In this document: positions 16,314 to 33,587 of the stretch, piece after piece
Layout of the letters: each line of letters begins with the position of its first letter
Position numbering within the stretch: position 1 is the stretch's first letter
NCBI GenBank assembly: GCA_965209055.1
Contig: OZ242374.1
Span: forward strand, 3,680,001-3,744,000
DNA from: Acidobacteriota bacterium
GTDB lineage: Bacteria > Acidobacteriota > UBA6911 > RPQK01 > JAJDTT01
Length of the DNA: 64,000 bases
Reading direction: 5' to 3'
Made by a program: the position numbers and the translations under genes
Notes under the pieces: model-generated
What the model was told of the DNA's origin: nothing
Seen by the model: only the letters and a program-made list of their open reading frames with translations
Database searches by the model: none

Positions 16314-17642
16314 TCAGCCGGCCTGAATCGTCCGCTTCACGGGATCGAAGGTCATGCGCCGGCCGCTCCAATAGGAATCGGTGGACATGATGCAGGCGAC
16401 GGAATGACCGTAACCGGCCTCCACCGGACAGTGCAGCCGCTTGCTGTCCCGGGCGCGAATGGCGTCCAGCCAGTTGGCGACGTGGCTCCTTTCGCCCGGC
16501 GCATCGGGAATGGGGACCTGGTCCTCGATCTTGCCGTCCGCCTCCACTCCCCGGCCCGAGAAGTGCCAGGGAACGTTGGGGTTGGCGCTGGGCTCGGCCC
16601 GGCCCTCGCTCCAGTCTTTCCTGTTGGTGGAGCCGCCGGCCTCGAAGCTGCCCAGTGTGCCGTGCACCTGCGTCGCCTTGCCGTATCCGTTGATCAGGTT
16701 GGTGGAGTAGACCATGAGGAATTTACGGCCGTCCTTTTCATACTCCAGCGAGACTTCGATGGTGTCGGCGTTCTCCCGCCAGTCCTTCCAGGCGTAGATG
16801 CCGCCGTGGGCCACGGCGTTCAGGGGGTAGGAAGTGCCGGTGAGCATGTGGGCCATGTCGATGCCGTGGGTCATCCACTGGTCGATGATGCCGCTGGAGA
16901 AGTCCTTCCAAAGGCGGAAGCAGCGGAACACCCTGGGATCGAAGGGGCGGTGCGGCTTGCCCATGAGCCAGGTGTTCCAGTCCACGTCGCTCTCCCTGAT
17001 CTTGGCCAATTGCTCGTCCGACTTGGCCCAGCGGTAGGCGCTGTACCAGCTCCAGTGGAGGTCGACCTTGACCACGTCACCGATGATCCCGTCGGCGATC
17101 ATCCTGGCCGCCTGCCGGTACTTGGGAGAACTCCGCCGCTGGGTGCCGATCTGAACGATGCTGCCCGATTCCTTCACCGCGTCCAGCGCCGCGTTGGTCT
17201 CCGACAGGACGTTGCCCATGGGCTTCTCGCAATAGGCGTCCTTACCCGCCTTGGCGGCCATTTCCAGGATCTGGGCGTGAGCGTGATCCGGAGTGGCGAT
17301 GATGAGAGCGTCGATTTCCGGGTCGTTCACGATCTGTTCGTGGTGCTTGTAGACCTTGGGGGACGACCCTTGCCTTTCCTCGGTCAGCGCCTTCGCTTGG
17401 TCCCGCGCGTCGTTCCAGACATCGCAAACCGCCGTGAGGCGGGCGTTGAAACGCTGGTTATGATCGAAAAACTCCCTCATGATGCCCCGGCCGCGGCCGC
17501 CGGGACCGGCGATGCCGACCCGGATCTGGCCGTTCACGTCACGGGACTTGGCGATAGCGGGAAACCCGGCCAGTGCGAGTCCGGCTCCGGCTCCGGCCGA
17601 ACGGGACAGGAAGGAACGCCTGTTGATGGAAGATTGACTCAT
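16314..17642 (-). CDS. Gfo/Idh/MocA oxidoreductase, Tat-exported
   Basis: NRRSFL; GPGGRG; ATPDHAH; YCEKP; QIGTQRRS. Confidence 0.92.
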   Translation of the reverse strand: MSQSSINRRSFLSRSAGAGAGLALAGFPAIAKSRDVNGQIRVGIAGPGGRGRGIMREFFDHNQRFNARLTAVCDVWNDARDQAKALTEERQGSSPKVYKHHEQIVNDPEIDALIIATPDHAHAQILEMAAKAGKDAYCEKPMGNVLSETNAALDAVKESGSIVQIGTQRRSSPKYRQAARMIADGIIGDVVKVDLHWSWYSAYRWAKSDEQLAKIRESDVDWNTWLMGKPHRPFDPRVFRCFRLWKDFSSGIIDQWMTHGIDMAHMLTGTSYPLNAVAHGGIYAWKDWRENADTIEVSLEYEKDGRKFLMVYSTNLINGYGKATQVHGTLGSFEAGGSTNRKDWSEGRAEPSANPNVPWHFSGRGVEADGKIEDQVPIPDAPGERSHVANWLDAIRARDSKRLHCPVEAGYGHSVACIMSTDSYWSGRRMTFDPVKRTIQAG

Positions 17643-17778
17643 GGCTCATACTCCGTCAGGTTTGATCGGCGGGTTCCGGTTGTCGGAACCGATTGGACAA
17701 TGGTAGCGAAGCGGTGGGACCGCGACAAGGCGGATACGGCCCCTAAACGTAAACACTGACTAAGGATAGGAACCCCCC

Positions 17779-18738
17779 ATGGCTCAGAAGAGATTCCTGA
17801 TTACAGCCCCGGTGGAAGAGATCGTGATCGAGTTGCTGGAGGCCCATGCGCCGACGGTGACGTCGCCCGCCACCGACCAGAAGACGTTGTCAGGCCTGCT
17901 CTCGGGATCGATCGGGATCGTCGCCCGGGGCGAGGCCCGGATCACCCCCGAGCTGGTGGAGGCCGCGCCCGATCTCCAAGTCGTGGGCAGGACCGGCGTC
18001 GGGTACGACAACGTGGACGTGCCGGCTCTGACCCGCCGGTCGATTCCCCTGATCATCGCCCCGGTGGGTGGGTTCTCCGTGGCCGAAGGGGCGCTGGGGA
18101 TGCTGCTCTGCCTGATCAAGAACATGCGCGCCATGGACTCGGCGGTCCGCGAAGGCAACTGGGACATCCGCTACGACGGCCTGGTCGGGGACGTGGCCGG
18201 CCATACGGTGGGCATCGCCGGGATGGGCCGGATCGGTTCCTACCTGGCCAGGCTGCTTCAGCCCTTCGAAGTGACGGTCCTGGGCTACGATCCTTACGTG
18301 GACGCCGGTCGAATGGCCGAGATCGGGGTCCGCAAGGTTGAGTTGAAGGAACTGCTGGCCCGGTCCGACTATGTCTCCTTTCACATGCTTCTGAATGACG
18401 AGACCCGGGGCATGATCGACCGGGACGCGGTCGCCGGCATGAAGCGGGGGGCGGTTCTGCTGAACCTGGCCCGCGGCGGAATCACCGACGGCCTCGATAC
18501 CCTGGCCGACGCCCTGGACGATGGGCAACTGAGCTACGTGGGACTGGACGTTTTTCCCACCGAACCTCCCGATGTCTCCCACCGGATCTTCAAACATCCC
18601 CGGTGCCTCTTCGCGCCCCACTCCCTGGGCATGAGCGAACTGGCCATGGACCGGGTCGGCCGTTCCATGGCCAACGACATGCTGGCCGTGTTGGAGGGGA
18701 ATCGACCCCAGCACTGCGTCAATCCTGAAGTCTTCTAG
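17779..18738 (+). CDS. D-isomer 2-hydroxyacid dehydrogenase (SerA-like)
   Basis: GVGYDNVD; GMGRIG; NLARGG; LDVFPTEP; PH. Confidence 0.9.
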   Translation: MAQKRFLITAPVEEIVIELLEAHAPTVTSPATDQKTLSGLLSGSIGIVARGEARITPELVEAAPDLQVVGRTGVGYDNVDVPALTRRSIPLIIAPVGGFSVAEGALGMLLCLIKNMRAMDSAVREGNWDIRYDGLVGDVAGHTVGIAGMGRIGSYLARLLQPFEVTVLGYDPYVDAGRMAEIGVRKVELKELLARSDYVSFHMLLNDETRGMIDRDAVAGMKRGAVLLNLARGGITDGLDTLADALDDGQLSYVGLDVFPTEPPDVSHRIFKHPRCLFAPHSLGMSELAMDRVGRSMANDMLAVLEGNRPQHCVNPEVF

Positions 18739-18796
18739 GAGTGGGGGTTTTCCTATCCCGATAGCCCCACAGTCAACAACTACCAAACATTAACGT

Positions 18797-18809
18797 TTTC
18801 AATGGATTA
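18797..18809 (+). promoter_or_regulatory. IHF-like site, left att arm
   Basis: TTTCAATGGATTA, one mismatch to WATCAANNNNTTR; about 42 bp inside the core. Confidence 0.55.
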
Positions 18810-18863
18810 CCGGGTTCTTCGCCGAATCGGTAGCGTGGTTGACTCCCTATGTTTGACATCCTG

Positions 18864-18882
18864 AACAGGCAACAAACAGGCA
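18864..18882 (+). repeat. Putative integrase arm-binding repeat (left)
   Basis: AACAGGCA-ACA-AACAGGCA, identical to 31052-31070. Confidence 0.75.
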
Positions 18883-18980
18883 GCAGTATTCGAGCCTGCG
18901 ATGCCGGTCTGGTACTATTTCCTCTGCGATATAGGCCCGCCGTCACCAGATCCGCTGTGACGAAGGTCGGGCAGTCGGAC

Positions 18981-20036
18981 TCAGTTTTTTGGCCCTTCCA
19001 CGTTCGTGCGATTCGCCGAGACGGCGCGTACGTACTCAAGCACTTCTGGTCGAATCTCGTCCCACTCTTCCAGGGTCTTGAAGGAGAGAGCATAGCCACC
19101 GTGTGTCCATTCTTCGAGATTGACGGAACCACTGAGCCTGGCAAATGCACCGTCACCGCCCCATGTAATCGCCTGCGGCAATACGCTGACGCTGCACACT
19201 TCCGTTCCCAGATATCCGGCTTGCACGCCAAAGTAGGTTCTCGTGACGTTGGAATCCCCAGGCTCGCTGAGCACAAATCCGACGCTCGTGCTCCCTACCT
19301 GCTCCCAAACGCCCTGCTCTGGCAGATGTCGGCGAAGGTCGGCATGGACTCGGTCAAAGAGTTCCTTGTATCCATTGTCAACCAGGTATTTTTCCAGAGC
19401 CCGACGCTTTTCGGCGGTGGTTGCGGAAGGACGCTTTCGGATGATTTCTGTTCGTCCTGACTCCACCTCCAGTTGTCGAGCTAGGAGTCGCTCCCCTTCA
19501 CGTTGAAACCCGTGGAATGTCACCACGGAAATATCCACTGGCCCAGCAGAAATGAATCGTGCCATCCGTTCGGCTACAGCGTCCACACCCAATCCGACGA
19601 GTACCATGCGGGGCGGCAGGAGGCGTGACAGGTCGTCCCCGCCGAAGTTGTCGGCGTACCATTGCTCGAAGTCATCGATCTGTTCGATACCGTCGTTCCC
19701 GCTACGTTCGGAAATGTGCTTCGCGAGGTCGCCGGTACTCATGGCGTCCAAGTCCGAAGCGTAGTCCAAGACTTGGGTCACAGCCTCGCGGGCAAGCATC
19801 CCTCGCTTCAACTCGTAGACGACCAGACGGCCGTCCGCGTCAACGGCGAGCAGATCCAGCCAACCGGTTTGGGTGGGCGTCTGTCGTCCCACGAGACGGA
19901 GGCCCGGTTCGAGCATTTCCGGGTTGCGAACCAAAAGCTCCTCCAAGCCCAACTCGGTTTGCATCTGCTTGAGCGGTGACAGGGGCGCCACCGTCCCCGA
20001 CCCGTCGACCGCCCAGATACACAGTTCCTCAGTCAT
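18981..20036 (-). CDS. NucS/DUF91-like PD-(D/E)XK endonuclease
   Basis: ELGLEELLVRNPEMLEPGLRLVGRQ; LDLLAVDADGRLVVYELKRG; QVLDYA. Confidence 0.8.
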   Translation of the reverse strand: MTEELCIWAVDGSGTVAPLSPLKQMQTELGLEELLVRNPEMLEPGLRLVGRQTPTQTGWLDLLAVDADGRLVVYELKRGMLAREAVTQVLDYASDLDAMSTGDLAKHISERSGNDGIEQIDDFEQWYADNFGGDDLSRLLPPRMVLVGLGVDAVAERMARFISAGPVDISVVTFHGFQREGERLLARQLEVESGRTEIIRKRPSATTAEKRRALEKYLVDNGYKELFDRVHADLRRHLPEQGVWEQVGSTSVGFVLSEPGDSNVTRTYFGVQAGYLGTEVCSVSVLPQAITWGGDGAFARLSGSVNLEEWTHGGYALSFKTLEEWDEIRPEVLEYVRAVSANRTNVEGPKN

Positions 20037-20324
20037 TTCTGCGTCCGATATCTCAATCGGCTCATCAAGCTACACGATTGTCGCCGTCCGATTCAAACGC
20101 GCCGTTCCAACGGGGGATACGGCCCTGCTCAACCCCTACGGAGGGGTGACGGCAGCACTGAAGCGGGCGGTCGAGTTGCAACCAGCGGCGGAAAGTCGCT
20201 CCTTCCAGGTCGTGATTGACGGTGAACGCACTCGGCAATCGCAAGGGCCTTTGGAGGCTCGTTTCGGCTGTGCCTCAAGGGGGTCTCGCGCCCGATCCGG
20301 GATGTGAATGGGACAAGGGGGGTG

Positions 20325-20541
20325 GATTCACAAAAAGCGGTCCCGGTGATTCACAAACGCGCTGTCCCCGATCTTTTTTCCTTTCAGTCAGTTACGGCCC
20401 CATTTCTGGCCACCGGGTGGCCGCACGGGGAAAATGGAGGTGGACGGGAGCGACCCCCCCTTTTTCCTGCCCGGTGCGGGCGCGGGGGTGTTGCGCAATT
20501 CACATTTGCGCAGCACCCCCTGGGGGGGTCGCTCCCGTCCA
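20325..20541. other. Structured non-coding region, candidate oriV/oriT remnant
   Basis: GATTCACAAA at 20325 and 20348; perfect 20-bp inverted repeat 20441-20460/20522-20541 enclosing an internal hairpin. Confidence 0.5.
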
Positions 20542-21145
20542 AATTATCCCTGGCGGGAAGGCAGTAAGATGATCCCATGAAGCCATGAAGTGGCGTTATG
20601 CAGGTATCATTCCGGCGGATTAGGCGGACATTGTCTGGCGAGCCGAATACGATCCCATATTCCGGCCTGGAGACCATCCGGTGCTGGACCTGATCGCCGT
20701 TCACGATCGTGCCGGGTATACGGTGACCCGGATTTGGCACTCTATGGCTCCCGATATCGCCGTCCTGCTCGGTGGGCAAAATTGCTTGTCCGTCTGACGC
20801 GTCTATGTCCAAATGAACCGCAGGTCGATAGATCGAAGGATCCTGCTTACGTGGCCGACCCGGTTCCGTTAGATCGTCGTCGGCGAAGCGCACCATCCGG
20901 CGAAGCCGTAGGAAGTCTCTCAACTCTCTTGGTTTTTCATTCCCGAGTGGTGCCTCTATACTGAATGCTGATCTTTCAGGACTGGGGGTTCTGGCAAGAC
21001 ATCGTGCATCGGAGTACGATCCGCTCGCATAGCCGGATGTGTTTGTCAAAAAGGAGTTGCAGACCAACCGAGGCAGCCTGCACACTTCTGCACCGCACTC
21101 CGCATCCCGGTCAGCGCCTCAGAAAACCATTGCCCGCATATCCAC

Positions 21146-23431
21146 ATGGCCATCACAGTCTTTAACGACAGCTCGTACAGCCTGTCTGCCTTGGTCGAGG
21201 CGATCGGTAGGGGCGAGATTGCTCTGCCCGACATCCAGCGACCCTTCCGCTGGAAGGCGACCAAGGTCCGAGACCTCTTCGACTCGATGTACCGTGGCTT
21301 CCCCGTTGGCCACCTGATCTTCTGGGCAACCGGTGCCGAGATGGGTGCCCGCCGAATCGGCACGCATGCCCACGAGGCCGCGCCGCGCCTCATGATCGTG
21401 GATGGCCAGCAGCGGCTCACCAGCCTCTACGCCGTGCTCACGGGGAGCGAAGTGCTCCGTGAGGATTACACTGCTTCGCGGATTCGTATCGCGTTTCGCC
21501 CCCGAGACGGCAGCTTCGAGGTAGCCGATGCCGCAGTGGTAAGGAACCCGGAGTTCATCGCCGACATCTCGATTCTATGGGCTGGCGGCAGTTTGCTAAA
21601 GAAGGTGCGGGAGTTCCTCATGCGCCTGGAAGAAAGCAAGGGTGATCTTGGCGAGGACCGGCGCGTCCGCATTGAATCGGCCATTGAAAGACTCTACAAC
21701 CTCCGAAACTATCCTTTTAAGGCCATGGAGGTGGCTTCAACGGCAGGTGAGGAACAGGTCGCGGACATCTTCGTGCGCATCAATAGCAAGGGGGATAGAC
21801 TCGGCCAAGCCGACTTCATTCTCACACTGATGTCCGTCTGGTGGGAGGAGGGCCGCAAGCAACTGGAGAAATTCGCCCGGAACGCTAGGCTCCGGCCTCC
21901 TGGGCCGTCTCCCGCAAATCCGTTCATCGACCCGTCCGCGGACCAGATGCTACGCGTGGTTTCGGGACTTGCCCTCCGGCGCGCCCGCCTTCGATACGTC
22001 TATCAGGTGCTTCGGGGCAAAGACCTTGAGACCGGCGAGATTTCGGCTCAGATCCGGGAGAAGCAGTTCGCCACATTGCGGGAGGCTCAGGCGGAGACCC
22101 TTTCGCTGACTAATTGGCACGAGTTTCTTAAGGCAGTCCGTCGGGCCGGCTACCGAAGCCGAGCCATGATCAGTTCGGAGAACAATCTGATGTTCTCCTA
22201 CCTGATGTACCTGATTGGCCATCGAGACTACCGGATCAACCGCAGGACCCTTCGCGAAGCCATCGCTCAATGGTTCTTCATGACCTCACTTACTGGCCGA
22301 TACACGGGCAACTTCGAGAGCCGAGTTGAGCAGGATCTCCGCCGTGTCGCCGAGGCGAGGTCCGGTGATGAGTTTGTGGCAATGCTGAACGGGATCATCG
22401 ACACGACGCTCACCATGGACTATTGGACGATCCAACTCCCCAGTTCGCTTGAGACTTCCTCAGCCTTCGGTCCGACGGTGTTCGGATACCACGCAAGCCT
22501 TGTTCTCCTCAATGCGCAGCCGCTGTTTTCCCCGCTGCAATTGAGTGAGCTTTTGGATCCATCGACGCACGCTCCTCGCTCGGCCGTCGAGCGTCACCAT
22601 CTTTTTCCCAAAGCGTACCTGACACGGATTGGCATCGATCGCACAGTACAGCGAAATCAGATCGCCAACTACGCCTTCGTCGAATGGCCCGACAACGCGG
22701 AGATCGGCGACTCACGGCCAAGTGAGTATTTCCCTCCCCTCTTCGCCAAGCTTACGGCGCGGCAGCGAGAACGAGCACGGTTCTGGCATGCGCTGCCGGA
22801 GGGTTGGGAACAGATGGATTATCGGGAGTTCCTTCAGCAACGGCGGGTGCTCATCGCTGATGTCGTGCGAGCGGCATTCAACAGGCTCCGGACCGGCGAG
22901 CCTCCCGAGGAGGAGGAACCGCTGCCGCTGCCGCCTGGTGGCCACGCATGGTCCATTGACGATCTCCTCGCCGAAATGGAAACCGAGCGGGTCGAGTTCA
23001 AGTCGTCTGCCTACTACAGCTACAAGCCGAACGTACCGGAGAGAGTAATCACGGAGTCCGTGCTCAAGACCATCGCGGGCTTCCTGAACGCCGGAGGTGG
23101 CATTCTCGCGGTCGGCATTGCGGATGACGGCGAGATCCTCGGCATCCAACCGGACCTGGACATGAAGAACATGGACGGGGACCGGTATGTGAACTCACTC
23201 ACAAACCTGATCGAGCGCTCGCTCGGACCACTTGCTTCCACGATGGCGAAGATTCAGTTGCAGGCTGTCGATGGCGTGCAAGTCGCCATGGTACACGTGA
23301 CCCCATCTCCTGAGCCGATCTATGCCAAGGTCTCCAAACGTGACCGGGCCTTCTTCGTTCGGGTGAACAACTCGACCCGGATCCTTGAAGGGGCCGATCT
23401 TGTCGGATATGTCAGACAACGCTGGGCCTAG
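21146..23431 (+). CDS. DUF262 (GmrS-like) + HNH-like + C-terminal AlbA_2/Schlafen domain fusion
   Basis: LPDIQRPFRW, DGQQRLT, FVRINSKG; ERHHLFPK...NQIAN; VEFKSS...KTIAGFLNAGGGILAVGIADDG...FFVR. Confidence 0.85.
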   Translation: MAITVFNDSSYSLSALVEAIGRGEIALPDIQRPFRWKATKVRDLFDSMYRGFPVGHLIFWATGAEMGARRIGTHAHEAAPRLMIVDGQQRLTSLYAVLTGSEVLREDYTASRIRIAFRPRDGSFEVADAAVVRNPEFIADISILWAGGSLLKKVREFLMRLEESKGDLGEDRRVRIESAIERLYNLRNYPFKAMEVASTAGEEQVADIFVRINSKGDRLGQADFILTLMSVWWEEGRKQLEKFARNARLRPPGPSPANPFIDPSADQMLRVVSGLALRRARLRYVYQVLRGKDLETGEISAQIREKQFATLREAQAETLSLTNWHEFLKAVRRAGYRSRAMISSENNLMFSYLMYLIGHRDYRINRRTLREAIAQWFFMTSLTGRYTGNFESRVEQDLRRVAEARSGDEFVAMLNGIIDTTLTMDYWTIQLPSSLETSSAFGPTVFGYHASLVLLNAQPLFSPLQLSELLDPSTHAPRSAVERHHLFPKAYLTRIGIDRTVQRNQIANYAFVEWPDNAEIGDSRPSEYFPPLFAKLTARQRERARFWHALPEGWEQMDYREFLQQRRVLIADVVRAAFNRLRTGEPPEEEEPLPLPPGGHAWSIDDLLAEMETERVEFKSSAYYSYKPNVPERVITESVLKTIAGFLNAGGGILAVGIADDGEILGIQPDLDMKNMDGDRYVNSLTNLIERSLGPLASTMAKIQLQAVDGVQVAMVHVTPSPEPIYAKVSKRDRAFFVRVNNSTRILEGADLVGYVRQRWA

Positions 23432-23439
23432 GCACTTAG

Positions 23440-24628
23440 GGAAGGTCTGAACAAGTCGATTCAAGGGACGTGAGAGCCGTTATTGTTTCGGCTTTGCGGT
23501 GTCCAAACCTTCATTATGAGGAGTACCACCCTGGCAAGGCTCTGGGTGCCCCCATTCTCAGACTGATTCCCCGAATCTCGACGCACCTCTCCCGCGCCCG
23601 GATCAGGCGTTCACGCCAGAGCGCTCGGCGATCATCAGATTGGCGAACCCCACCAGCAAATAGATCCGTTGGGTGTTTTTCGCCAGCCCCCGGTAGCGCA
23701 CCTTCGCGTAGCCGAAATGCCGTTTCAGGTACCCGAATACATGTTCTGCCTTGGCCCGAACCGACGCTTTGCGCCGCTCGGCCAACGCCGCCTCACTCTC
23801 CGGTGGCAGCCGCCAACGCTTCCCCGGCTTCATCATCACCTGCCAATCCACCGGCCGATCTCGATTCTCCGACCGCTTTCCCACTCCCTGGTATCCCGAA
23901 TCCCCCCAAACTTGAGACTCCGAGCCGTGCAGCAACTCACCGGCTCGCGTCACGTCATGCTCGTTAGCCGGCGCCGTCACCACCGTGTGCGCCACCCCCG
24001 TCTGGGCGTCCACCCCCAGGTGGGCCTTCATTCCGAAATACCACTGTTTTCCCTTCTTCGTCTGATGCATCTCCGGGTCCCGCGCCCCCTCCCTGTTCTT
24101 GGTCGAGGAAGGCGCCGCCAGGATACTCGCGTCCACGATCGTCCCCCGGCTCAGCCGCAGGCCTTGCCGCTGCAGGTGAGAACCGATCTCCTCGAACAGC
24201 GCCTCCCCCAGACCATGCTCCTCCAGCCGATGACGGAATTTCAGAATCGTCGTCTCGTCCGGCAGCGGCCCCGTGAGCTTCAGGCCCACGAACCGCCGCA
24301 CCGACTCCACCTCATAGAGCAGATCCTCCATCCCCGGATCGCTCAGGTTGTAAAACAGCTGCACGCAGTGGATCCGAAGCATCGTCGAGAGCGGGTAGGG
24401 ACGCCGTCCCCGTCCCGCTTTCGGGTAAACGGGCCGAATCCGGGCTTCCAACTGCTCCCATGGAATCAACCGGTCCATCCGGGCCAGAAATCTCTCCCGA
24501 CGGGTCACCCGCTTCTTGCCGTCGTATTCCAGATCTGCGAACGTTCGTTGCGACATCATCTATCCTCCATGCAGTGATGATGGAAGAATTATCGTGCAGA
24601 ACGCTGACTCGACTTAATCAGACCTTCC
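23440..24628 (-). mobile_element. IS5-family element (IS5 subgroup), copy 1
   Basis: TIRs GGAAGGTCTGAACAAGTCGA / GGAAGGTCTGATTAAGTCGA; TTAG duplication at 23436-39 and 24629-32. Confidence 0.95.
23603..24559 (-). CDS. IS5 DDE transposase
   Basis: GRRPYPL; PDETTILKFR; IVDAS; DPEMHQTKKG; WGDSGY; VRYRGLAKN. Confidence 0.95.
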   Translation of the reverse strand: MMSQRTFADLEYDGKKRVTRRERFLARMDRLIPWEQLEARIRPVYPKAGRGRRPYPLSTMLRIHCVQLFYNLSDPGMEDLLYEVESVRRFVGLKLTGPLPDETTILKFRHRLEEHGLGEALFEEIGSHLQRQGLRLSRGTIVDASILAAPSSTKNREGARDPEMHQTKKGKQWYFGMKAHLGVDAQTGVAHTVVTAPANEHDVTRAGELLHGSESQVWGDSGYQGVGKRSENRDRPVDWQVMMKPGKRWRLPPESEAALAERRKASVRAKAEHVFGYLKRHFGYAKVRYRGLAKNTQRIYLLVGFANLMIAERSGVNA

Positions 24629-24725
24629 TTAGTCCCATCGAGTGCCAGACCGTGCATGCCCTAGAACTCATGGATCGCGACGCTGCTTGGTCCGGCCGGG
24701 ATTTACTTTCTTGGTTGCCGAAGAC

Positions 24726-25121
24726 GCATGCCACAAGCAACAGGGGAAGATTTCCGTACGGGAAACGGTTGCCGCCACCCGCGATCACATAGTGCGTGAA
24801 TGGCCCATTGACCCGCTTGTACTCCTTCCGTCGGCGTGGGTTGGTGCGCGGTAGAGTAGACAGCGCCCGTAGCCGGGCCACCCAACCGAGGTCCAGTTCC
24901 GCCTTGCGGCCCGTGACCAAATGATCGATCTGGCGAGCGGAGGTCCAATGGCGGAAGGACTGCGGCGGTAGTAACTGCCAGGCGTTCCACCCGAACGCGG
25001 CCTTCATCTTCCCGTACTCGATCTTCTGCTTCTTGGAAGGGTTAATGTTGTCAGTTTCCCATGAGGGACTAGCACCCACAGCGGGGAGCGCTGAGCGCTT
25101 GGGAGTCCTCCCGTGGGACAA
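24726..25121 (-). pseudogene. Truncated plasmid replication initiator (RepA_C, IncW/pBBR1-like)
   Basis: GWVARL...LPRTNP...YKRVNGPF...AGGGNRFPYGNLPLLL; similarity stops abruptly. Confidence 0.6.
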
Positions 25122-25210
25122 CGGGACCGCAGCATGACGGGGACAAACATCTGGAGGCGTATACTTGCCTTCGCCTACGGGATTTCAGACGCTCTCAAGC
25201 AGCCTCTCTA

Positions 25211-26128
25211 CTAGTCTGAATGGTGCCCGCGCCAGACCAACTGCTTGTCGGTCGTCGCATCGATGCAATTTTTCAAACGTGGCGGCTTGTCTGGAGATGC
25301 AAACGCCCCATCAAGTTGCTTTTGGGTTAAGTTGGTCGCGGGAGGCCTACTACGGGGATCCGCTTCGTCGAGCTCGGCGAATCGGGTGCCAGACAGATTG
25401 GTCCCATCAAGATTGGCGTTCTCAAGGTTAGAGCCTGACAGGTCCGCGTCTACGAGAGACGCACCGGACAGGATCGCGTTAGATAGGTCGGTTTTCATGA
25501 GGAACGCCCCATCAAGGTTTATCTTTGCAAGAGATCCATAACGAAGGTGGACGCCGCGTAGGTCCAGTCTGAAATTGGCGTCCCGTTCAAGCTCGATACG
25601 TTTCTCTGAGCGTCTGCGGAGCAAGTCCATGACGGCCTGCACGTCTTCGCGCACCCATTGCCGATGATCATGTTCTTCCCCTCTTTCCGCAGCAATCTCT
25701 TTGGCAGCTTCCTCAGAGCCGCTAGCAAATTGAGCGTCATCCGTTAGGATGCCGCCGTTTGTCAGAGCAATGTTCTCAACGGATTTCCCGACCGGATGAC
25801 GAGCGAACGCGCAGAATAGGCGCATGACCTCGATGTGGTATTGCTCTGGGTGTTCCCCGGAGAGGCGTTCGAGAGCATACAAGCCGCCGAGCCGGACCGG
25901 GAGTTTCTCACTGCCCAGCATTTCCGAGCATTTCTGATAGCGCTCGTTCAAAAGCCCACGCTGCGCTGTTTCGGCTTGGCGTTCAGCTATCCTGCTGCGC
26001 CATATGGCAAGGGGCAGAGCAATTCCCGCTGCGATAACCAGACCCAAATTGCGGATGATCGTACTATAGGATTCCCAGTTACTCAGCGAATCCGTAAGCT
26101 CGTCGCACATGCTTCTTTCTGCCCCCAA
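25211..26128 (-). CDS. Membrane-anchored pentapeptide-repeat protein
   Basis: Single TM segment; ERYQK...VRLGGLYALERL; A(D/N)Lxx repeats. Confidence 0.85.
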   Translation of the reverse strand: MGAERSMCDELTDSLSNWESYSTIIRNLGLVIAAGIALPLAIWRSRIAERQAETAQRGLLNERYQKCSEMLGSEKLPVRLGGLYALERLSGEHPEQYHIEVMRLFCAFARHPVGKSVENIALTNGGILTDDAQFASGSEEAAKEIAAERGEEHDHRQWVREDVQAVMDLLRRRSEKRIELERDANFRLDLRGVHLRYGSLAKINLDGAFLMKTDLSNAILSGASLVDADLSGSNLENANLDGTNLSGTRFAELDEADPRSRPPATNLTQKQLDGAFASPDKPPRLKNCIDATTDKQLVWRGHHSD

Positions 26129-26148
26129 GCCAAGGATACAAAAGTGGC

Positions 26149-27777
26149 TCAGTCAGGCTTCATCGGCAGGTGATTCTGCTTCTTCGATGAAGTGGGTCTT
26201 ACTCGCTTTGCTCGCTTGAATGTCACGTCGGCGGCTTGGGGGTAATCCACGCTCATTCCGCCCAAGAGATCCTCAATCGTGAGTAGTTGAATGCGAGGGT
26301 GATTCCCCCATGGAGATTTGTAGAAACCTGCCGAGGCTGCTTCTCGACGCATCGGTGCGGTCGGAGGATTCAGGGACAGGAAGACTCCTATCTGGGCCTT
26401 CTCACGGTTCACAACACCCACGAGGTCACGGATCTGGGACACTGTGACGTGTCCGGCCTTCACCGAGAAGATGATCTGCTTCGTCTTCCCATTCCGGCCC
26501 TCGTCATGGAAATAGAGCCGACCATCAATACCCTGGTCGGCTCCTTTTTTCTGCTCAATGGGACGAGCACCGGCCAAGCCGAGAGCCCACCACTGAAACT
26601 GATAGGGGTCCTGCCCCGCTAGAGTGGCGGCATCTTGGAGACTGATCGGTTCACCGATGACGTCAAATCGACAGTTCTTGCCGAAGGAATCCTGGAGTCG
26701 ATGACGAATCAGAGAGATGGCTAGATGGGTGATGTCGATCCCGATCCAGCGTCTATCGAGTTTCTGAGCCGCCGCAATGGTCGTCCCGCAACCACAGAAG
26801 GGGTCGAGCACAATTTCGCCCTCGTCAGTACTCGAAAGAATAATTCGATCAAGCAACAATTGAGGCTTTTGCGTCGGGTAGCCCAGACGTTCGGCAGCGA
26901 GATTGTGCAATGGACGAATGTCCGTCCATACGTCTTGCAAGGGAACGCCTGGCGAGTCTTCCGGGTATTGCTTCAATCGAGGCATCCCGCCCTTCTTCTT
27001 TGGCCAGTGAACACGATCCTTTCGGTCAAGTTCATCTAGCGTAGACGGGGGTGATCTCCAATGCCGTCCCTTTGCCGTGACGTCAATCCCGCGCCATGGC
27101 AGACCTGTTTCGCCATATCGGATGCCTGCGCCGGTCATATCGGCCCGCTTCCACCGTCTGCCATCCGGGTCAGTCTGATCGAAGAATGTTTCTATGTAAT
27201 CAGTGTCGTATTCCTGAAAGACTCGATTCCACTTGTACTTGTTCGTTTTCCCATAGAATAAGATCACGTCATGCACAGGTCCGTATCGCTTCGCACTGCT
27301 GTGGGCGCTCGTGCGTTTCCACACAATTTCGCTCAAGAAACGTTCTGGTCCGAAGACGGCATCGAGCAAGAGTTTTAAAGAATGGCTCGCCGTTGGGTCG
27401 CAGTGCAGGTATAGACTCCCCGTCAGTTTCAGCACCCTTCGAAGTTCCAAGAGACGAGGTGCCATCATCGACAGGTAGGCCAACATGTCGTTGGTCCCCA
27501 TGAACTTCCTGAAGGCGATTAATGCCTCGGCTACTCTGCCGCCAGTTTCTACCGTCTCTTGATAGGCCCTGGCCGCAGTTTCGTCCCACTGCCACGTGTC
27601 CTCGAACGCCTTAATCTGGGAAGCCGACTGTGATCCGTCTTTCTCTTGAAACAGGACGTTGTAGGTCTGGTTGCTTTTGAAAGGAGGATCTAGGTAGACG
27701 AGGTCAACGCTTTTGTCCCGCAGGTAGCGCCGGAGAATATCCAAATTGTCGCCATAGTACAGAGTGTTGGATGCCAT
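26149..27777 (-). CDS. N6/N4 DNA methyltransferase with C-terminal Mrr-like nuclease domain
   Basis: YLDPPF; GYPTQKP; LDPFCGCGTT; C-terminal GADQGIDG...SVKAG. Confidence 0.9.
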   Translation of the reverse strand: MASNTLYYGDNLDILRRYLRDKSVDLVYLDPPFKSNQTYNVLFQEKDGSQSASQIKAFEDTWQWDETAARAYQETVETGGRVAEALIAFRKFMGTNDMLAYLSMMAPRLLELRRVLKLTGSLYLHCDPTASHSLKLLLDAVFGPERFLSEIVWKRTSAHSSAKRYGPVHDVILFYGKTNKYKWNRVFQEYDTDYIETFFDQTDPDGRRWKRADMTGAGIRYGETGLPWRGIDVTAKGRHWRSPPSTLDELDRKDRVHWPKKKGGMPRLKQYPEDSPGVPLQDVWTDIRPLHNLAAERLGYPTQKPQLLLDRIILSSTDEGEIVLDPFCGCGTTIAAAQKLDRRWIGIDITHLAISLIRHRLQDSFGKNCRFDVIGEPISLQDAATLAGQDPYQFQWWALGLAGARPIEQKKGADQGIDGRLYFHDEGRNGKTKQIIFSVKAGHVTVSQIRDLVGVVNREKAQIGVFLSLNPPTAPMRREAASAGFYKSPWGNHPRIQLLTIEDLLGGMSVDYPQAADVTFKRAKRVRPTSSKKQNHLPMKPD

Positions 27778-27850
27778 AGTTCACCAGTATCCCATGAGGG
27801 GCAGACACCCAGAGAAGGAGGGATGAGAGTTCCGCTGCCGACTGAAGCCT

Positions 27851-30023
27851 ATGAACCGGCACGCGCCGGACACGCGGGAATCGGAGAAATTTAGGGATGA
27901 TTTCCGCGATAAGGCCATCGGCACGATTCGCAAATACGCCGATCTGAACATCATCAAAGCAAGAGTTGTACTCGATACCACTGGACGCCGCCGCCGCGGC
28001 TTTGCCTTGGAGGATTTGAACACCTACTCCGTTTCTCTGGAGCCGTGGTACGATTCGCCCCACGGCGAAGAACCCGGATCCAGAAAGGAGGAGATGCATG
28101 GGCATCTGTGCGCCAGGCTAACTGGCACAAGACAAGCGGTGAAAGTCCGCTGAAACGAAGGACTAACCATCCACGTTTCTCCGCGAGCCGTGCGTTGGCA
28201 CCCGTGAGGGTGTCGGCGAAGCGTCGGCAGCGGCGCGTGTGGGCGGGGCTATTGAGCATCGAAACATGCAGGAACGGAAGTGCCGAGGCTGTGGATGCGG
28301 TCGAAGGCAACACCGGCTGGACCGGGAAGGTGAGGGACAGACGGACACCGCGGTGTCTAGGAACCCAAGCACGCACGTACGTCTTGTGTCGGGACCTGGG
28401 AGGGCTTCATTTCGCTCCGGTGGTCGAGCCAGGGCCGCATGAGAAAGGAGCAAACCGAACCTCATGATGGACGAAACGAAGCAGTCGGATTCATCCATAG
28501 TAGCGATGAAGCGGGCGAACAAAGAGGGGGAACCCTCGGCGGAGCCGGTGGAGCGAAGGGATGAAGCCAAGGGGAATTCGGTGTGCCAAAGCACGCGCCG
28601 GACGCAGAGTCGGGGGAGCGTGTCCCAAGCGGCGGACCGGATACGGCGAGCCATAGCGAGAAACCCCAAGGAGCGACTGACCGCGCTGTTGCACCATATC
28701 ACCGTGGAGGCCTTGCGCCGCGCCTACCTCGGACTGAGGAAGGATGCGGCCCCGGGAATCGACGGAGTGCGGTGGGAGGAGTACGGGGCGAAGCTGGAAG
28801 AGCGACTGCTGGACCTGCATCGCCGCGTGCACCGGGGCGCGTACCGGGCGCCTCCCGTCCGGCGGGTGAGAATCCCCAAGCCGGACGGACGGACACGACC
28901 GCTCGGGATCGCGGCACTGGAGGACAAGATCCTCCAGAAGGCCGTGGTGGACGAGCTCCTGACGCCGATCTATGAGGCGGAGTTTCTCGGGCTCAGCTAC
29001 GGGTTCCGGCCCGGACGGAAGGCGCATGACGCGCTGGATGCCCTGGCCTACGGGATCGAACGGCGGAAAGTCAATTGGATCGTGGACGCGGACATCCGAA
29101 CGTTTTTCGATGCGATCGACCGGGACTGGATGATCCGGTTCGTGGAACATCGGATCGGGGACCGGCGGGTGTTGCGGCTCCTGACCAAGTGGCTGAACGC
29201 GGGAGTGATGGAAGAAGGGACCCGGTCGGACACGGGGAAAGGGACGCCTCAGGGCTCCATCGTCTCCCCGGTGCTGGCAAATGTGTACCTGCACTACGTG
29301 CTGGACCAGTGGTTCCATCGGAAATGGCGTCCACGAGTCCCGAAAGGCGAGGCGATCCTGGTGCGGTATGCGGACGACTTCGTGGCCGGATTCGAGAAGC
29401 GGGCAGACGCGGAGCGGTTTCTCCGAGACCTGGGGGAACGGTGCGCCGAGTTCGGACTGGAACTGCACCCGGAAAAGACGCGACTGGTGGAGTTCGGGCG
29501 ATTTGCGGCAGCGGATCGGCGGCGACGCGGGGCGCGGAAACCGGAAACGTTCGATTTCCTGGGCTTCACGCACTACTGTGCGAAGACCCGGAAGGGGCGG
29601 TTCCGGCTGGGGCGGAAACCGAGTGCGAAGCGGATGCAACGAACCCTGAAACGGGTGGGGGAGAGGCTGCGAAGACGCCGGCACGACGACATCTGGGAGG
29701 TCGGGAAATGGTTGGGCCGCGTATTGAACGGCTGGCTCAACTACTTTGCGGTCCCCGGAAGTGGACGATGGCTGCAAGGCTTTCGATATCGGCTGCGAGA
29801 GCAGTGGATGCGGGTGTTGCGCCGCCGGTCGCAGCGAGCGCGCTTCACGTGGAGACGGCTCCGAAAGATGGCCAAGCTTCTCTGGCCGTCGGTGACGATT
29901 CGCCACCCGTGGCCGAGCGAACGGCTCACCGTAACGACCCAAGGCAGGAGCCGTGTGCCCTAACGGGCACGCACGGATCTGTGCGGGGGGCGGAGGGAAA
30001 CCGCCGTTCCTACCGCGACATAA
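27851..30023 (+). CDS. Putative excisionase (MerR-like winged HTH), intron-split: 27851-28107 joined to 30020-30023
   Basis: GTIRKYADLNIIKARV...GRRRRGFALEDL resembles Xis/HTH_17; overlaps the int start; splicing gives ...HGHL-TAA. Confidence 0.5.
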
Positions 30024-31095
30024 GGTGAAGGATCGCCGGGGGAGACGACGGTACGTCGTCAGCAAGTACTGGCCGAACGGATCCGGTCGGCTCCGAATGT
30101 ACGCCCCCAACTACCGGAGCGCGCAAGCGCTTCAAACACGAATCGAGTCCAGTATCCTGGACGGCACCTGGAAGCGGCTCAAGCAGGAACTCGCCGGTGG
30201 GAAACGCAAGATCTGGACGGTCCGGAGTTTCTACGAGCGTTTTTTCGAGGAGTATTGCAAACCTCGTCTACGCTGCTTGCGCCGCTACGCACTCTCGTTC
30301 AAGAGCCTCAACGCCATGCTGGGGAACATTCCCCTGAAGGAGTTCCAGCGCAAGGACCTCCACCGCTACGTCGCGAAACGGAAGGGACAGGTCCAGCCAG
30401 CCACGGTGAACCGAGACATTGCGGCCCTCAGCAAGCTGTTTTCCTACGCGCTGGAGTGCGGGGAAGTGGACACGCATCCGCTGGTTCGATTCCCCAAACT
30501 GAAGGAGCCCAAGAAGGTCTTCCGGCCTTTGACGGTCCAACAGTTCCGCGACCTGGTCGAGGCGGTGGACAACCCTTCCCTGCAAGCCATGATCGCAGTG
30601 ATCGGTGAAACGGGGATTCGCAAGGGAGAGGGATTGTCGCTCACATGGAGTCGGGTGGATTTGGGCCGCCGGATGTTGTGGGTGGAGTTCACCAAGGACG
30701 ACGAACCGAGAGAGATTCCGCTCTCGAAGTACGCCGCCCGATATCTGGCGGGGCTGGTTCGTTACCTGAACACACCGTATGTGTTCGTCAACAGCCGGAC
30801 CGGGACAAGATGGGTGAATCCAGACAAGTCTCTACGTCGCGCTGCCGAGCGGGTGGGGTTGAAGGTTGGGTTTCACGATCTGAGGCGATTCCGCTGTAGC
30901 CATTGGCTGATGCAGGGTGTGGACGTGAGAACGGTGCAGAAGCTGATGGGACACTCATCGATCAGCACGACGATGCGCTACGCGGGCTACGTCAGTTCGC
31001 ATGCGCTCCAGAGCATTCGAGAGGCACAGGCTAACGAAGACTCACAAACGCAACAGGCAACAAACAGGCAACGGGTCGGAATGAAGGGACAATGA
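28098..31095 (+). CDS. Tyrosine recombinase/integrase, intron-split: 28098-28107 joined to 30020-31095 (361 aa)
   Basis: AGGAGG RBS; spliced MGIYKVKDRRG...; catalytic R (TGIRKGE), HDLRR, GHS and TMRY are intact. Confidence 0.9.
28108..30019 (+). mobile_element. Group II intron (IIB-like, probably bacterial class E)
   Basis: 5' GTGCG; domain V GAGCCGTGTGCCC-TAAC-GGGCACGCACGG; 3' end ...CTACCGCGAC; EBS1 GGATGC (28293-98) and EBS2 CATGCA (28265-70) pair with the 5' exon. Confidence 0.93.
28464..29963 (+). CDS. ltrA: Group II intron reverse transcriptase/maturase (no endonuclease domain)
   Basis: RPLGI, GFRPG, GTPQGS, YADD, FDFLGF, maturase GWLNYF. Confidence 0.96.
   Translation: MMDETKQSDSSIVAMKRANKEGEPSAEPVERRDEAKGNSVCQSTRRTQSRGSVSQAADRIRRAIARNPKERLTALLHHITVEALRRAYLGLRKDAAPGIDGVRWEEYGAKLEERLLDLHRRVHRGAYRAPPVRRVRIPKPDGRTRPLGIAALEDKILQKAVVDELLTPIYEAEFLGLSYGFRPGRKAHDALDALAYGIERRKVNWIVDADIRTFFDAIDRDWMIRFVEHRIGDRRVLRLLTKWLNAGVMEEGTRSDTGKGTPQGSIVSPVLANVYLHYVLDQWFHRKWRPRVPKGEAILVRYADDFVAGFEKRADAERFLRDLGERCAEFGLELHPEKTRLVEFGRFAAADRRRRGARKPETFDFLGFTHYCAKTRKGRFRLGRKPSAKRMQRTLKRVGERLRRRRHDDIWEVGKWLGRVLNGWLNYFAVPGSGRWLQGFRYRLREQWMRVLRRRSQRARFTWRRLRKMAKLLWPSVTIRHPWPSERLTVTTQGRSRVP
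31052..31070 (+). repeat. Putative integrase arm-binding repeat (right)
   Basis: AACAGGCAACAAACAGGCA, within the int 3' end, identical to 18864-18882. Confidence 0.75.
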
Positions 31096-31114
31096 ATGGA
31101 GGGGATATTTGGGA

Positions 31115-31127
31115 TAACCGGTTGATA
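31115..31127 (-). promoter_or_regulatory. IHF site, right att arm
   Basis: Minus strand TATCAACCGGTTA matches WATCAANNNNTTR exactly; about 43 bp from the core. Confidence 0.7.
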
Positions 31128-31176
31128 ATTAAGGATCTAGATCGTAGATCATTTGGACCGAGCGACGGATTTCCTA

Positions 31177-31213
31177 CCCCCACTCCCCAGGGGATAGGAA
31201 AGTCCCCCCACTA
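31177..31213. repeat. Right half of the interrupted REP plus a second inverted REP
   Basis: CCCCCACTCC then GGGGATAGGAAAGTCCCCCCACTA (reverse complement TAGTGGGGGGACTTTCCTATCCCC). Confidence 0.75.
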
Positions 31214-31228
31214 ATGTCCCCTCCTACC

Positions 31229-32287
31229 CTATCCGTTCACCAGATTCACGAGCGGTTCCAAAGCGGGCATTCCGGAGGCGATCTCCTTTCGCTCAATCCG
31301 CTTCATGACTCGCCGAACCGCCTCGTTGACCGGCGTCGGGACCCCTTTCTTCCTTCCCTTTCGGACCACGAACCCGTTGAAGTGATCCACCTCCGTGATC
31401 CGCCCCTTCCAATGGTCCTGGAGCAGGGAAGTGGCGGCTGCGGGACTGATCCGTTCCGACATCCGGGCCAGCCGCCGGTCCATGGTCCCATCCCGGCCCC
31501 GGGCGGCGGCCAGAACCTGATCCGGCGTACATGGGCCCAGGACGCGATGAATCCCGTGTCCATGGGCACGTGCCACCAGGACCACCTCTTCCGCCAGCCG
31601 GATCATGATCTTCCGGACCTCCGGCTCACCCAGGAGTGGCGCCGACCGCAACCCGGTGATTCCCGACAGGGCGTTGACCATGGCGCTGGTGGCCAGCTTG
31701 GTCCAGCGCATGGCCAACAGGTCGCGGGTCGTCTTCGCCGGCCACACGGTATTCAGATAACCGGCCACTTCCCGGGCCTTGCGATCGGAGGACCCCGCGT
31801 ACTCGCCCACGTAGGCTCCCGGAGCATCCAGGTTGGAAGACCGGGAGACCGACTGGGTCGAGACCTGGATCCGGCCGGGAGCCTCCAGCACGGCGTTGAT
31901 CAGGATGACGACACCGAGAATCCGGCCGCCGTCGATTCGCTGCGCGATGATCTCTTCGTTGATGCCGTTCTGGGTGCTCACCACCCACGCCTGTGGTGAC
32001 AGGTACGGGAGCACCGTCTTCACGGCGGCGTCCGAATCGTAGGATTTCACCGCCAGGAAGAGGATATCGACCGGGCCGAGGCGGTCGAGCCAGTCCGGGC
32101 GAACGACCGGCGGACGATGGAGAACCGCCCCCTTCTCGTCTTCGATTCGAAGTCCCGAGTCCCGAATGGCCTGGAACTGCTCGGGCCACGGCTCGATCAG
32201 CGTAACGTCGTGTCCCGCGGCGAACATCCGGGCGCCGACCTGCCCCCCGATGGCGCCGGCGCCGAAGACCGCCAGACGTTTTCCCAT
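31229..32287 (-). CDS. Ketopantoate reductase family (PanE/ApbA)
   Basis: GAGAIG; LAVKSY; QNG; WTKL; TSLLQD...TEVDHFNG. Confidence 0.88.
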   Translation of the reverse strand: MGKRLAVFGAGAIGGQVGARMFAAGHDVTLIEPWPEQFQAIRDSGLRIEDEKGAVLHRPPVVRPDWLDRLGPVDILFLAVKSYDSDAAVKTVLPYLSPQAWVVSTQNGINEEIIAQRIDGGRILGVVILINAVLEAPGRIQVSTQSVSRSSNLDAPGAYVGEYAGSSDRKAREVAGYLNTVWPAKTTRDLLAMRWTKLATSAMVNALSGITGLRSAPLLGEPEVRKIMIRLAEEVVLVARAHGHGIHRVLGPCTPDQVLAAARGRDGTMDRRLARMSERISPAAATSLLQDHWKGRITEVDHFNGFVVRKGRKKGVPTPVNEAVRRVMKRIERKEIASGMPALEPLVNLVNG

Positions 32288-32291
32288 TCGG

Positions 32292-33452: not shown

Positions 33453-33528
33453 GGCATATCTCCGTCAATTCCGAATCTTGGTGGGTTCGAACTCATGCTA
33501 GCAGCACCTCTCTCAACCCGCCACGCCA

Positions 33529-33581: not shown

Positions 33582-33587
33582 TAACTC

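Follow-up and report, generated by a model that had tools for sequence, protein, structure and literature searches.

The DNA considered here is a window of 64,000 nucleotides (nt; positions 3,680,001 to 3,744,000 of contig OZ242374.1, assembly GCA_965209055.1), which lies within a single 6,077,182-bp contig of a sponge-associated bacterium of the Acidobacteriota; unless genome positions are indicated, coordinates are those of the window. It contains a 12.4-kb island (18756-31176) located between the two halves of a hairpin with a 10-bp stem, and bearing the heptamer TTTCCTA at both of its junctions. This island is very probably an integrative element with site-specific mobility, driven by a tyrosine integrase of its own; its chromosomal attachment site (attB) would be the stem-loop of a hairpin resembling the repetitive extragenic palindromes (REPs), and its lineage would stem from islands inserted in tRNA-Arg genes.

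At the left junction, GGAGTGGGGG (18738-18747) is followed by a T (18748), by TTTCCTA (18749-18755) and by TCCCGATAG; at the right junction, GACGGA (31164-31169) precedes TTTCCTA (31170-31176), after which comes CCCCCACTCC (31177-31186), the exact reverse complement of the left 10-mer. This exact stem occurs at two sites only in the window, both of them the island junctions. In the terms of site-specific recombination, 18738-18748 (GGAGTGGGGG plus T) and 31177-31186 would be the chromosomal half-sites B and B', the stem of the former differing between the sites of the twin elements described below, and the two copies of TTTCCTA (18749-18755 in attL, 31170-31176 in attR) would be the cores corresponding to a putative 7-bp overlap. 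The heptamer is the sole block common to attL and attR, and the integrase gene (int) ends 81 nt from the right end, which is the layout of an element delimited by an attL and an attR. The G+C content is 0.52-0.61 within the island, versus 0.64-0.68 outside. A second hairpin, inverted and unoccupied, is found beyond the right junction (31190-31209, minus strand; genome position 3711195; inverted repeat I16), with the loop TAGGAAA, that is, of the TTTCCTA type, and forms a doublet with the first one.

The genes flanking the island are convergent. On the left, a D-isomer 2-hydroxyacid dehydrogenase (17779-18738, plus strand; Pfam 2-Hacid_dh_C, 3.8e-50), with an ortholog in 8/8 other genomes of the genus, has a stop codon overlapping the start of the target hairpin; on the right, a ketopantoate reductase PanE/ApbA is encoded on the minus strand (31229-32287; Pfam ApbA, 1.3e-31). 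An earlier note on this stretch had described the 10-bp stem, the 7-bp duplication, the second inverted REP and the convergent neighbors, and all of them were found as described. It had also likened the site to a doublet at 33529 between convergent genes, a comparison that holds for the intact doublet itself (33528-33581; first hairpin 33528-33552, core CTGTTAG at 33539-33545, genome position 3713539) and fails for its context, as both neighbors (32292-33452 and 33588-34904) are on the minus strand. The unoccupied CTGTTAG hairpin of this doublet lies 2.3 kb to the right of the island, and belongs to a type occupied by 15 sister elements.

The island opens with a conserved left end (18756-18890, plus strand; 30 BLAST matches in the genome), which would be the P' arm of the attachment site and includes two tandem arm-type repeats inside 18864-18882. 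Its predicted cargo comprises a NucS-like nuclease-domain protein (18981-20036, minus strand; Pfam NucS_C, 1.6e-09; PADLOC PDC-S11, a candidate defense family, 3.6e-33), a GmrSD-type (DUF262) N-terminal domain fused to Schlafen/AlbA_2 (21146-23431, plus strand; GmrSD_N 1.4e-27; SLFN_AlbA_2 1.9e-15; PADLOC HEC-05 9.7e-34), a pentapeptide-repeat protein without a PADLOC match (25211-26128, minus strand; Pfam Pentapeptide 1.3e-13), and an N6/N4 DNA methyltransferase fused to an Mrr-like nuclease domain (26149-27777, minus strand; N6_N4_Mtase 1.1e-43; Mrr_cat 2.2e-06; PADLOC MTase_II 1.6e-73). An insertion sequence with 27-nt inverted ends (23437-24631, minus strand; inverted repeat I1) and a DDE transposase open reading frame (ORF) at 23603-24559 (DDE_Tnp_1 1.7e-28; DUF772) is also present in the twin copy of the island. 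Its transposase begins MMSQRTFADLEY, and 318-aa ORFs with the same first 40 residues were noticed in two other elements of the family (locus L067, 1353-2306; locus L072, 2960-3913). The right part of the island comprises a small conserved ORF directly upstream of int (27851-28107, plus strand), which is kept in the tRNA-type relatives; the first exon of int (28098-28107, plus strand; ATG GGC ATC T), delimited by comparison with the intron-less twin; a group II intron (28108-30019, plus strand) with a reverse transcriptase/maturase ORF at 28464-29963, recognized as a 1912-nt insertion relative to the twin and by Rfam and NCBIfam; the second exon of int (30020-31095, plus strand; Pfam Phage_integrase), which encodes the core-binding domain and the catalytic domain of a tyrosine recombinase; the arm-type repeats belonging to the P arm, within the 3' end of int (31052-31070, plus strand; direct repeat D11); and the right end itself (31138-31169, plus strand), a likely vestige of the 5' half of a tRNA-Arg gene (D-arm and 5' anticodon stem), recognized by colinear alignment with tRNA-type islands, which would be the P half-site.

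Int is matched by Pfam Phage_integrase (PF00589) with 93.1 bits versus a cut-off of 27.1 (E = 2.2e-26), and its best solved relative is 5c6k_A (1.1e-16). The catalytic residues of tyrosine recombinases are the Arg of box I, the H-x-x-R of box II and a C-terminal His...Tyr, and the alignment of Int with 5c6k_A pairs TGIRKGE with TGARWGE, HDLRR with HALRH and GHSSISTTMRYA with GHTRIEQTMVYA, so that the catalytic motifs are in place; judged by its sequence, Int is a bona fide tyrosine recombinase. It falls below the curated cut-offs of the Xer models (XerA 104.2 vs. 220, XerC 97.7 vs. 335, XerD 87.9 vs. 330) and far below that of the integron integrase (61.4 vs. 265), and its assignment as an Xer or integron integrase was rejected. 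The gene is split after its tenth base, in codon 4, by the 1912-nt intron (28108-30019), which is matched by Rfam group-II-D1D4-6 (160.7 bits) and Intron_gpII (41 bits) and by NCBIfam group_II_RT_mat (8.9e-109); the “spliced Int” mentioned in the earlier note was thus an apt phrase. Three 100% identical copies of the intron exist in the genome (the window; 784166-786077; 5306071-5307982), at the same position of three int genes; it appears as a mobile intron homing into the start of the integrase gene of a mobile element, each time after the tenth base. Contig joints from 28107 to 30020 correspond to intron-less sister copies in DNA and are uninformative on splicing.

Short repeats, A(A/C)A(G/C)GCA, are found at +110 and +121 from the left end in 24/25 elements of the family and at about -112 from the right end in 25/25, all in one orientation and against a background of 0.23 per kb; the 19-nt direct repeat D11 spans those of the left end and of the 3' end of int. 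From their position and conservation, the AACAGGCA repeats are probably arm-type sites for the N-terminal part of Int, in whose first 80 residues no Pfam arm-binding domain was detected. The small upstream ORF has 51-79% identity in the tRNA-type relatives. Its AlphaFold2 model (mean predicted local distance difference test score of 76) is confident for a helix, a beta-hairpin and a helix, and gave no match among PDB folds (best E-value 0.38). A role as an excisionase-like helix-turn-helix protein was considered and found unsupported, there being no Pfam (E up to 1), PADLOC or PDB fold match.

The integrase family was searched in the genome (G000) by tBLASTN, using as query the intron-extended ORF 29953-31095 (380 residues) and taking matches of at least 354 residues as full-length. 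This retrieved 26 full-length copies with 86-100% identity, plus fragments; likewise, the first 250 nt of the island recur at 30 places by BLAST, and the last 250 nt at 28. The ends can be paired into 25 elements of 2,684-25,066 bp, summing to ~259 kb or ~4% of the genome, and the contig, which terminates at 6077182, truncates a 26th one 24 nt before its right end. All 25 paired elements have an identical 7-nt core at both junctions (CTGTTAG in 8, CTAACAG in 7, TTTCCAA in 5, TTTCCTA in 4 and TTTCTAA in 1), and each core variant matches the loop of the hairpin occupied by its element. The core is flanked by a perfect stem of at least 5 bp in 22/25 elements, and of at least 4 bp in 24/25, versus 643 of 100,000 random positions (0.64%) for the 5-bp stem. 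Upon removal of the element in silico, 25/25 empty sites fold as hairpins (-8.0 to -36.5 kcal/mol, energies taken without a shuffled control). The proposal that a REP loop serves as attB is supported by these 25 sister insertions. The reservation that a single insertion might be an off-target event is dismissed because they share the junction anatomy, and is further removed by three pairs of 99.96-100% identical elements at different hairpins and by the agreement of a second genome (G004).

The closest of these copies point to recent movement. A twin at genome position 2810310-2820818 matches the window island with 100% identity over 9372 + 1165 nt, the intron being all that it lacks; two more pairs reach 100% identity over 2796 nt and 99.96% over 2707 nt. 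Flanks of 1 kb were compared for two of the pairs (the second copy of the third is truncated by the contig end), and in both, identity sets in 17-20 nt ahead of the left end and is lost 8-12 nt past the right end, the flanks themselves being unrelated. Identical copies thus sit at different hairpins and share only the arms, which makes them transpositions rather than segmental duplications. Just outside the core, the window twins differ, with CCCCCACTCC here and CCCCCACTTC at the twin site; since 100% identical twins carry different arm bases, the arms belong to the target and not to the element. Moreover, one element with a TTTCCAA core sits in a stem of the GGAGTGGGGG type. Orphan ends were also seen: two left ends facing each other ~10 kb apart (genome positions 474732, plus, and 484589, minus), and single ends at 416690, 4708655, 2499704 and 4556468, listed together with one frameshifted integrase; along with the contig break, they suggest rearrangements between copies or assembly breaks at those places. 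A pattern search for attP-like tandem junctions found none in G000, the only match being the tRNA-type attL of genome G003. In G004, 22/25 attL-type junctions abut the TCC... left end. Locus L098 of this genome (left end at 410818) is preceded by a remnant of a right end (D-arm-like sequence, ACGGA and the core TTTCCAG) without a hairpin half, and would be an attP-like junction, as expected of elements in tandem, whether intact or decayed.

The smallest elements (2.7 kb) consist only of the ends, int and a conserved, structured non-coding module of ~430 nt, which in the window is located at 20137-20586 (plus strand). Broadly, half of its 66 BLAST matches in the genome (33) lie inside elements and ~33 elsewhere; each element has one copy in its own orientation (26/26), and the few extra internal copies are inverted. 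The module contains a perfect 20-nt inverted repeat (20441-20460 / 20522-20541), and the consensus fold of 45 distinct copies is a long branched hairpin (-72.8) with a few compensatory pairs, e.g., UA in 27 copies and GC in 11. No Rfam match was obtained for it at E up to 0.01. In metagenome contigs, depth at the module is ~20x that of the neighboring DNA.

In the window island, 3/7 ORFs tested match PADLOC defense models (PDC-S11, HEC-05 and MTase_II). The cargo of 24 sister elements was scanned in 61 ORFs of at least 250 aa, selected from 158 ORFs after dropping the integrases of the family, transposases and obvious antisense ORFs by eye. PADLOC assigned Type I methyltransferases (5), Type I specificity subunits (5), mad2 (4) and mad5 (4) among them, and Pfam assigned ResIII (4), HSDR_N (4), Methylase_S (4), N6_Mtase (3) and SWI2_SNF2 (3), together with single cases of Cas1, Cas_GSU0053, AbiTii, NotI, Type_ISP_C and MmeI_Mtase. 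The cargo of the family is mostly restriction-modification and other predicted defense genes, and the description of this island as a defense island can be extended to its relatives. Inside a 21-kb element, locus L075 (genome positions 3904165-3915000) shows a run of ORFs resembling a CRISPR-Cas operon, with families assigned by eye: Cas1 and Cas_GSU0053 stand beside a 943-aa helicase-like ORF and a Cas4-like ORF.

The nature of the target was addressed by an unbiased count, over the whole genome, of hairpins that combine a 7-nt loop with a perfect stem of 6 bp, of which 3069 were found versus ~1484 expected. TTTCCAA is the commonest loop (124), followed by TTTCTAA (20); CTGTTAG/CTAACAG accounts for 7. 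The exact 10-mer GGAGTGGGGG was discarded as a repeat in its own right, as its 8 and 12 copies on the two strands of 6.08 Mb are no over-representation, and its one-mismatch matches in the window are 12 versus 13.75 expected. The idea of the earlier note that the REP is multicopy hence applies to a hairpin family with variable stems and loops, and not to the exact stem. Tandem arrays with units of 80 nt contain in each unit two hairpins in opposite orientation. Arrays of 80-82-nt units with one or two hairpins of the target family each were noted at genome positions 3248854-3249404, 3021969-3022131 and 5836716-5837781, the last one with at least 14 units and an arrangement resembling that of bacterial interspersed mosaic element (BIME) arrays. 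With short palindromes, many copies, alternating orientation, and an intergenic location seen at the orthologous doublets, the targets would belong to the REP/BIME type. The Y1 transposase family (PF01797; cut-off of 23 bits) has two weak matches in the genome, with 30.8 bits at 1142970-1143203 and 23.6 bits at 3750831-3751106, which are possible REP-associated tyrosine transposase (RAYT) genes of the hairpin family: a few hundred bases separate the first from hairpins at 1143684-1143730 and from the right end of the element at 1143775, and the second lies ~6.8 kb past the end of the window.

How many landing sites are available depends on the subfamily. The claim of many sites is borne out for TTTCCAA, with 124-151 hairpins versus 5 occupied ones, and not for the subtype of the window island. 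The word TTTCCTA is found 378 times in the genome, 141 of them in hairpins, mostly with CGGCGG/ACCGCCG or GGGCGA/ATCGCCC stems, none of which is occupied. The type with G-run stems, to which the window island belongs, has 4 occupied and 2 empty sites, one of the latter being the neighboring hairpin at 31190-31209.

The orthologous interval was compared in the genus. Hairpin doublets stand between the two flanking genes in all 9 genomes, and the island is absent in the 8/8 other ones, which have doublets of varying type instead. G004, the second-closest (flank 93% identical), has the same stem (GAGTGGGGG / CCCCCACTC) with the reverse-complement loop, and G001, the one with the closest flank (95%), has a different hairpin type; hairpins are still present at this locus in G001 and G003, which have no or one integrase match. 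Public sponge metagenomes were also considered: in run X4, an 11,677-nt contig (record 24) covers 18300-18735 and 31289-31600 with 165 nt between them, and contigs of runs X15 and X2 cover the attL junction, X15 being possibly the source sample of the window itself. Among the 15 joints listed, out of 44, for contigs of four runs there is no direct 18755-to-31177 joint nor a circular junction, the uncovered parts being uninformative.

Relatives of the integrase place this habit in an evolutionary frame. Of 41 related genomes, 23 match it at E up to 1e-30; there are 28 matches in G000, 14 in G004 and 0-3 in each remaining genome of the genus. Across the phylum, 401 genomes were sampled, and 8 of them, belonging to 3/227 genera, have matches at E up to 1e-100. 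A search of genome contigs gave 19 related loci, all metagenome-assembled and most from Acidobacteriota, with no new target types. Close homologues (88-94%; G004, G005, G007, and G008) abut hairpin halves downstream of int, and add the cores CTTTCCT, CTTCCAG, TTTCTAG, CTTTTAG and TTCTTAG. The single element of G003, a genome of this genus, has an Int with 85% identity; its attR consists of an entire tRNA-Arg(TCT), and its attL, ~47 kb away, of a displaced tRNA 5' half that ends in a CTTCTAA anticodon loop and is joined to a homologous left end. Further away, G010 and G035 (Int 71%) use tRNA-Arg(TCG) or tRNA-Arg(TCT) as site, and in G012 (Int 52%) the element adjoins tRNA-Arg(TCT).

The REP-type right ends are colinear with these tRNA-Arg 5' halves, with a mean column identity of 78% over 75 nt, and the window island has both this fragment at its right end and a 7-nt identity block. 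ARAGORN detected no tRNA in positions 17000-34000 of the window, nor in the REP-type loci L002-L004, and an attB of the anticodon-island kind was accordingly not found; the own tRNA-Arg(tct) of G000 (307704-307778) is intact, its nearest integrase match lying ~40 kb away. In a maximum-likelihood tree of 39 integrases, rooted at midpoint, the tRNA-type rows fall outside the clade of all 34 REP-type rows (support 95/88), within which integrases with CTGTTAG and with CTAACAG are interspersed, one sister pair (support 100/95) even combining the two. The earlier note had held that homologues sitting mainly in tRNA genes or other non-REP sites would speak against REP targeting: the distant ones (52-85%) do sit in tRNA-Arg, and the close ones sit in hairpins. 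The REP-type integrases being monophyletic and the tRNA-type ones branching outside them, the latter account for where the habit came from and are not its refutation; the REP-hairpin habit seems to have evolved from insertion into tRNA genes.

Taken as duplex DNA, the G/C-rich arms of the hairpin would be inverted core-type binding sites B and B', and the 7-nt loop would be the overlap, across which strands would be exchanged with the identical 7-nt core of attP. The latter would be composed of the right end (...GACGGA), TTTCCTA and the left end (TCCCGATAG...), and the repeats ~110 bp inside each end would be the arm-type sites for the N-terminal part of Int. Since attL and attR share exactly the 7 nt TTTCCTA, strand exchange should occur within the loop or at its borders, and we infer a double-strand recombination with cleavage at the loop borders. 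The lineage would descend from islands inserted in the 7-nt anticodon loop of tRNA-Arg and carrying the tRNA 5' half, which would survive as a vestige beside the core, and the present elements would behave like insertion sequences with cargo; in the window copy, int would need to be spliced free of its group II intron before expression. New cores may arise when a rare integration into a mismatched loop becomes fixed. If the arms are read loosely, the target would be set mainly by the 7-nt overlap and rewritten by such fixed integrations, resulting in a self-reprogramming lineage, a proposal that we find quite possible, if a little short of probable. Its overlap would have passed from CTTCTAA (tRNA-Arg) to TTTCTAA, TTTCCAA and then any host hairpin loop, and could flip between the two orientations of one hairpin, as with CTGTTAG and CTAACAG in sister integrases.

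Other explanations of the same junctions have to be considered. The hairpin arms could be the terminal inverted repeats of the element itself, and solitary hairpins its footprints or miniature derivatives: occupied CTGTTAG/CTAACAG sites (15) exceed the empty hairpins (7-9), and all four half-sites are alike, GGGA or CGGA being found to one side and TCCC opposite. This is largely refuted, and to be regarded as very improbable, given the different arm bases and flanks of 100% identical twins, the TTTCCAA-core element in a stem typical of TTTCCTA sites, the excess of TTTCCAA-loop hairpins over occupied sites with arrays unconnected with elements, and the hairpins kept at the orthologous locus by G001 and G003; what would be the “arms” of the tRNA-type relatives is clearly the tRNA gene. 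It is also unlikely, though less so, that the substrate of the integrase is a single-stranded or cruciform hairpin in folded form, as attC is for integron integrases, instead of duplex DNA. The strength of the target hairpins and the weak, sub-threshold matches of Int to integron-integrase models would fit such a mode. Nevertheless, the dyad of the attP core (CGGA ... TCCCG) is short and imperfect, unlike that of a folded site, pairing with attP would be impossible for the loop of a folded hairpin, ordinary tRNA genes serve the tRNA-type relatives as sites, and a 7-nt identity block between inverted arms is the classical duplex layout, as outlined for anticodon-loop integrases (PMC8371274).

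Several points weigh against integration into hairpin loops by the element's own integrase. The int of the window copy is interrupted by an intron, and a functional Int would depend on its splicing; furthermore, the small upstream ORF is decayed in many sister copies, from which it follows that some elements may be immobile or dependent on others. Stems are shorter than 5 bp at 3/25 sites, and the hairpin subtype of the window island is low-copy, with only 2 empty G-run-stem sites. The 141 TTTCCTA-loop hairpins, mostly with other stems and unoccupied, indicate that stem sequence matters and that “any REP” is too broad a target. Among assembled contigs, neither an excised circle nor an exact empty site of the window insertion was found, and the bridging contig of run X4 has 165 nt where ~132 are expected. 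The tree is rooted at midpoint only, its most distant row being on a very long branch. Lastly, all genomes are metagenome-assembled, and G000 scores 7.4% “contamination”, which, with the contig end inside one element and the orphan ends, could favor copies made by segmental duplication, homologous recombination or assembly error, the hairpin context being then a coincidence of intergenic insertion. The boundaries are base-exact at 25/25 sites with unrelated flanks, the same anatomy appears in the independent assemblies of G004, G005, G007, and G008, and public contigs (X15 and X2) span the attL junction; this last explanation is hardly credible. Site-specific integration into REP-like hairpins is the reading retained.

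Tyrosine integrases are commonly thought of as enzymes with one or few sites per genome, their islands being single-copy and tied to tRNA genes. Here, a lineage would have left the tRNA site for a repeat family that mimics the anticodon stem-loop, and would then have reached ~26 copies. It would represent a natural example of attB change with visible intermediates: another member of the genus has a tRNA-type relative of the element, attP keeps the vestige of half a tRNA gene, and the loops differ from the anticodon loop by one or two bases. A new role is also suggested for REPs, as distributed docking sites for defense cargo, which bears on the origin of the many restriction-modification systems in uncultivated sponge-associated bacteria. 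If it is true that the 7-nt overlap sets the target, the system would offer a simple starting point for multi-site or retargetable integration tools, and with a programmable overlap it would amount to a natural multi-site integrase that spreads in the manner of an insertion sequence while carrying defense cassettes. The earlier note knew of no described family of this kind; in the same sense, a full-text literature search, with subscription journals and supplements outside its coverage, found no described tyrosine integrase with REP attB sites. What appears new is a tyrosine-integrase element with a new class of attB, a copy number like that of insertion sequences, and a visible evolutionary path from a tRNA site.

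The closest known systems share some of these features each. Integrons also rely on a tyrosine recombinase, imperfect palindromic sites and modular cargo. In integrons, attC is part of the cassette, and recombination takes place at one platform with this site folded as single-stranded DNA; in contrast, each element here has its own integrase, and the palindrome comes from a host repeat family. The integrative mobile elements exploiting Xer (IMEX) and the pdif modules of Acinetobacter plasmids have dif-like XerC/XerD sites and depend on host Xer recombinases, the pdif sites being multicopy. They resemble the present elements in that short palindromic core sites with a 6-8 bp spacer flank the mobile modules, whereas the window element encodes its own integrase, which matches Xer models below cut-off only.

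Insertion sequences targeting REPs (ISPpu9 and IS621, of the IS110 family; IS1397 and ISPpu10) are another of these systems. Copies of ISPpu9 are inserted in REP sequences (PMC8450116; bioRxiv 10.1101/2025.01.17.633520), and IS110 elements use a guide (bridge) RNA (PMC11208160). The REP-targeting insertion sequences have in common with the elements of this genome the use of multicopy REP hairpins as neutral landing sites and the presence of several copies per genome; on the other hand, these insertion sequences have DEDD or DDE transposases and no cargo, unlike the tyrosine integrase, the putative arm-type sites and the cargo of up to ~20 kb found here. A further system is that of the anticodon islands, for whose integrases the overlap is described as lying in the 7-bp loop and the core sites as supplied by the palindromic stem (PMC8371274); Islander reports 2083 anticodon-centered attP sites, and 159/3919 islands with a 5' tDNA fragment (PMC4383910). 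The class “A” anticodon islands of Islander share the tyrosine recombinase, the 7-nt loop overlap and the palindromic core sites in the stem, and the relatives with 71-85% Int identity are tRNA-Arg islands of the minority type that carries the 5' half, of which a vestige would remain here. The elements described in this work differ from them in having as attB a multicopy extragenic hairpin with no gene to restore, in reaching ~26 copies in one genome, and in an overlap that varies among sisters, with at least five cores in this genome and more in G004 and G007.

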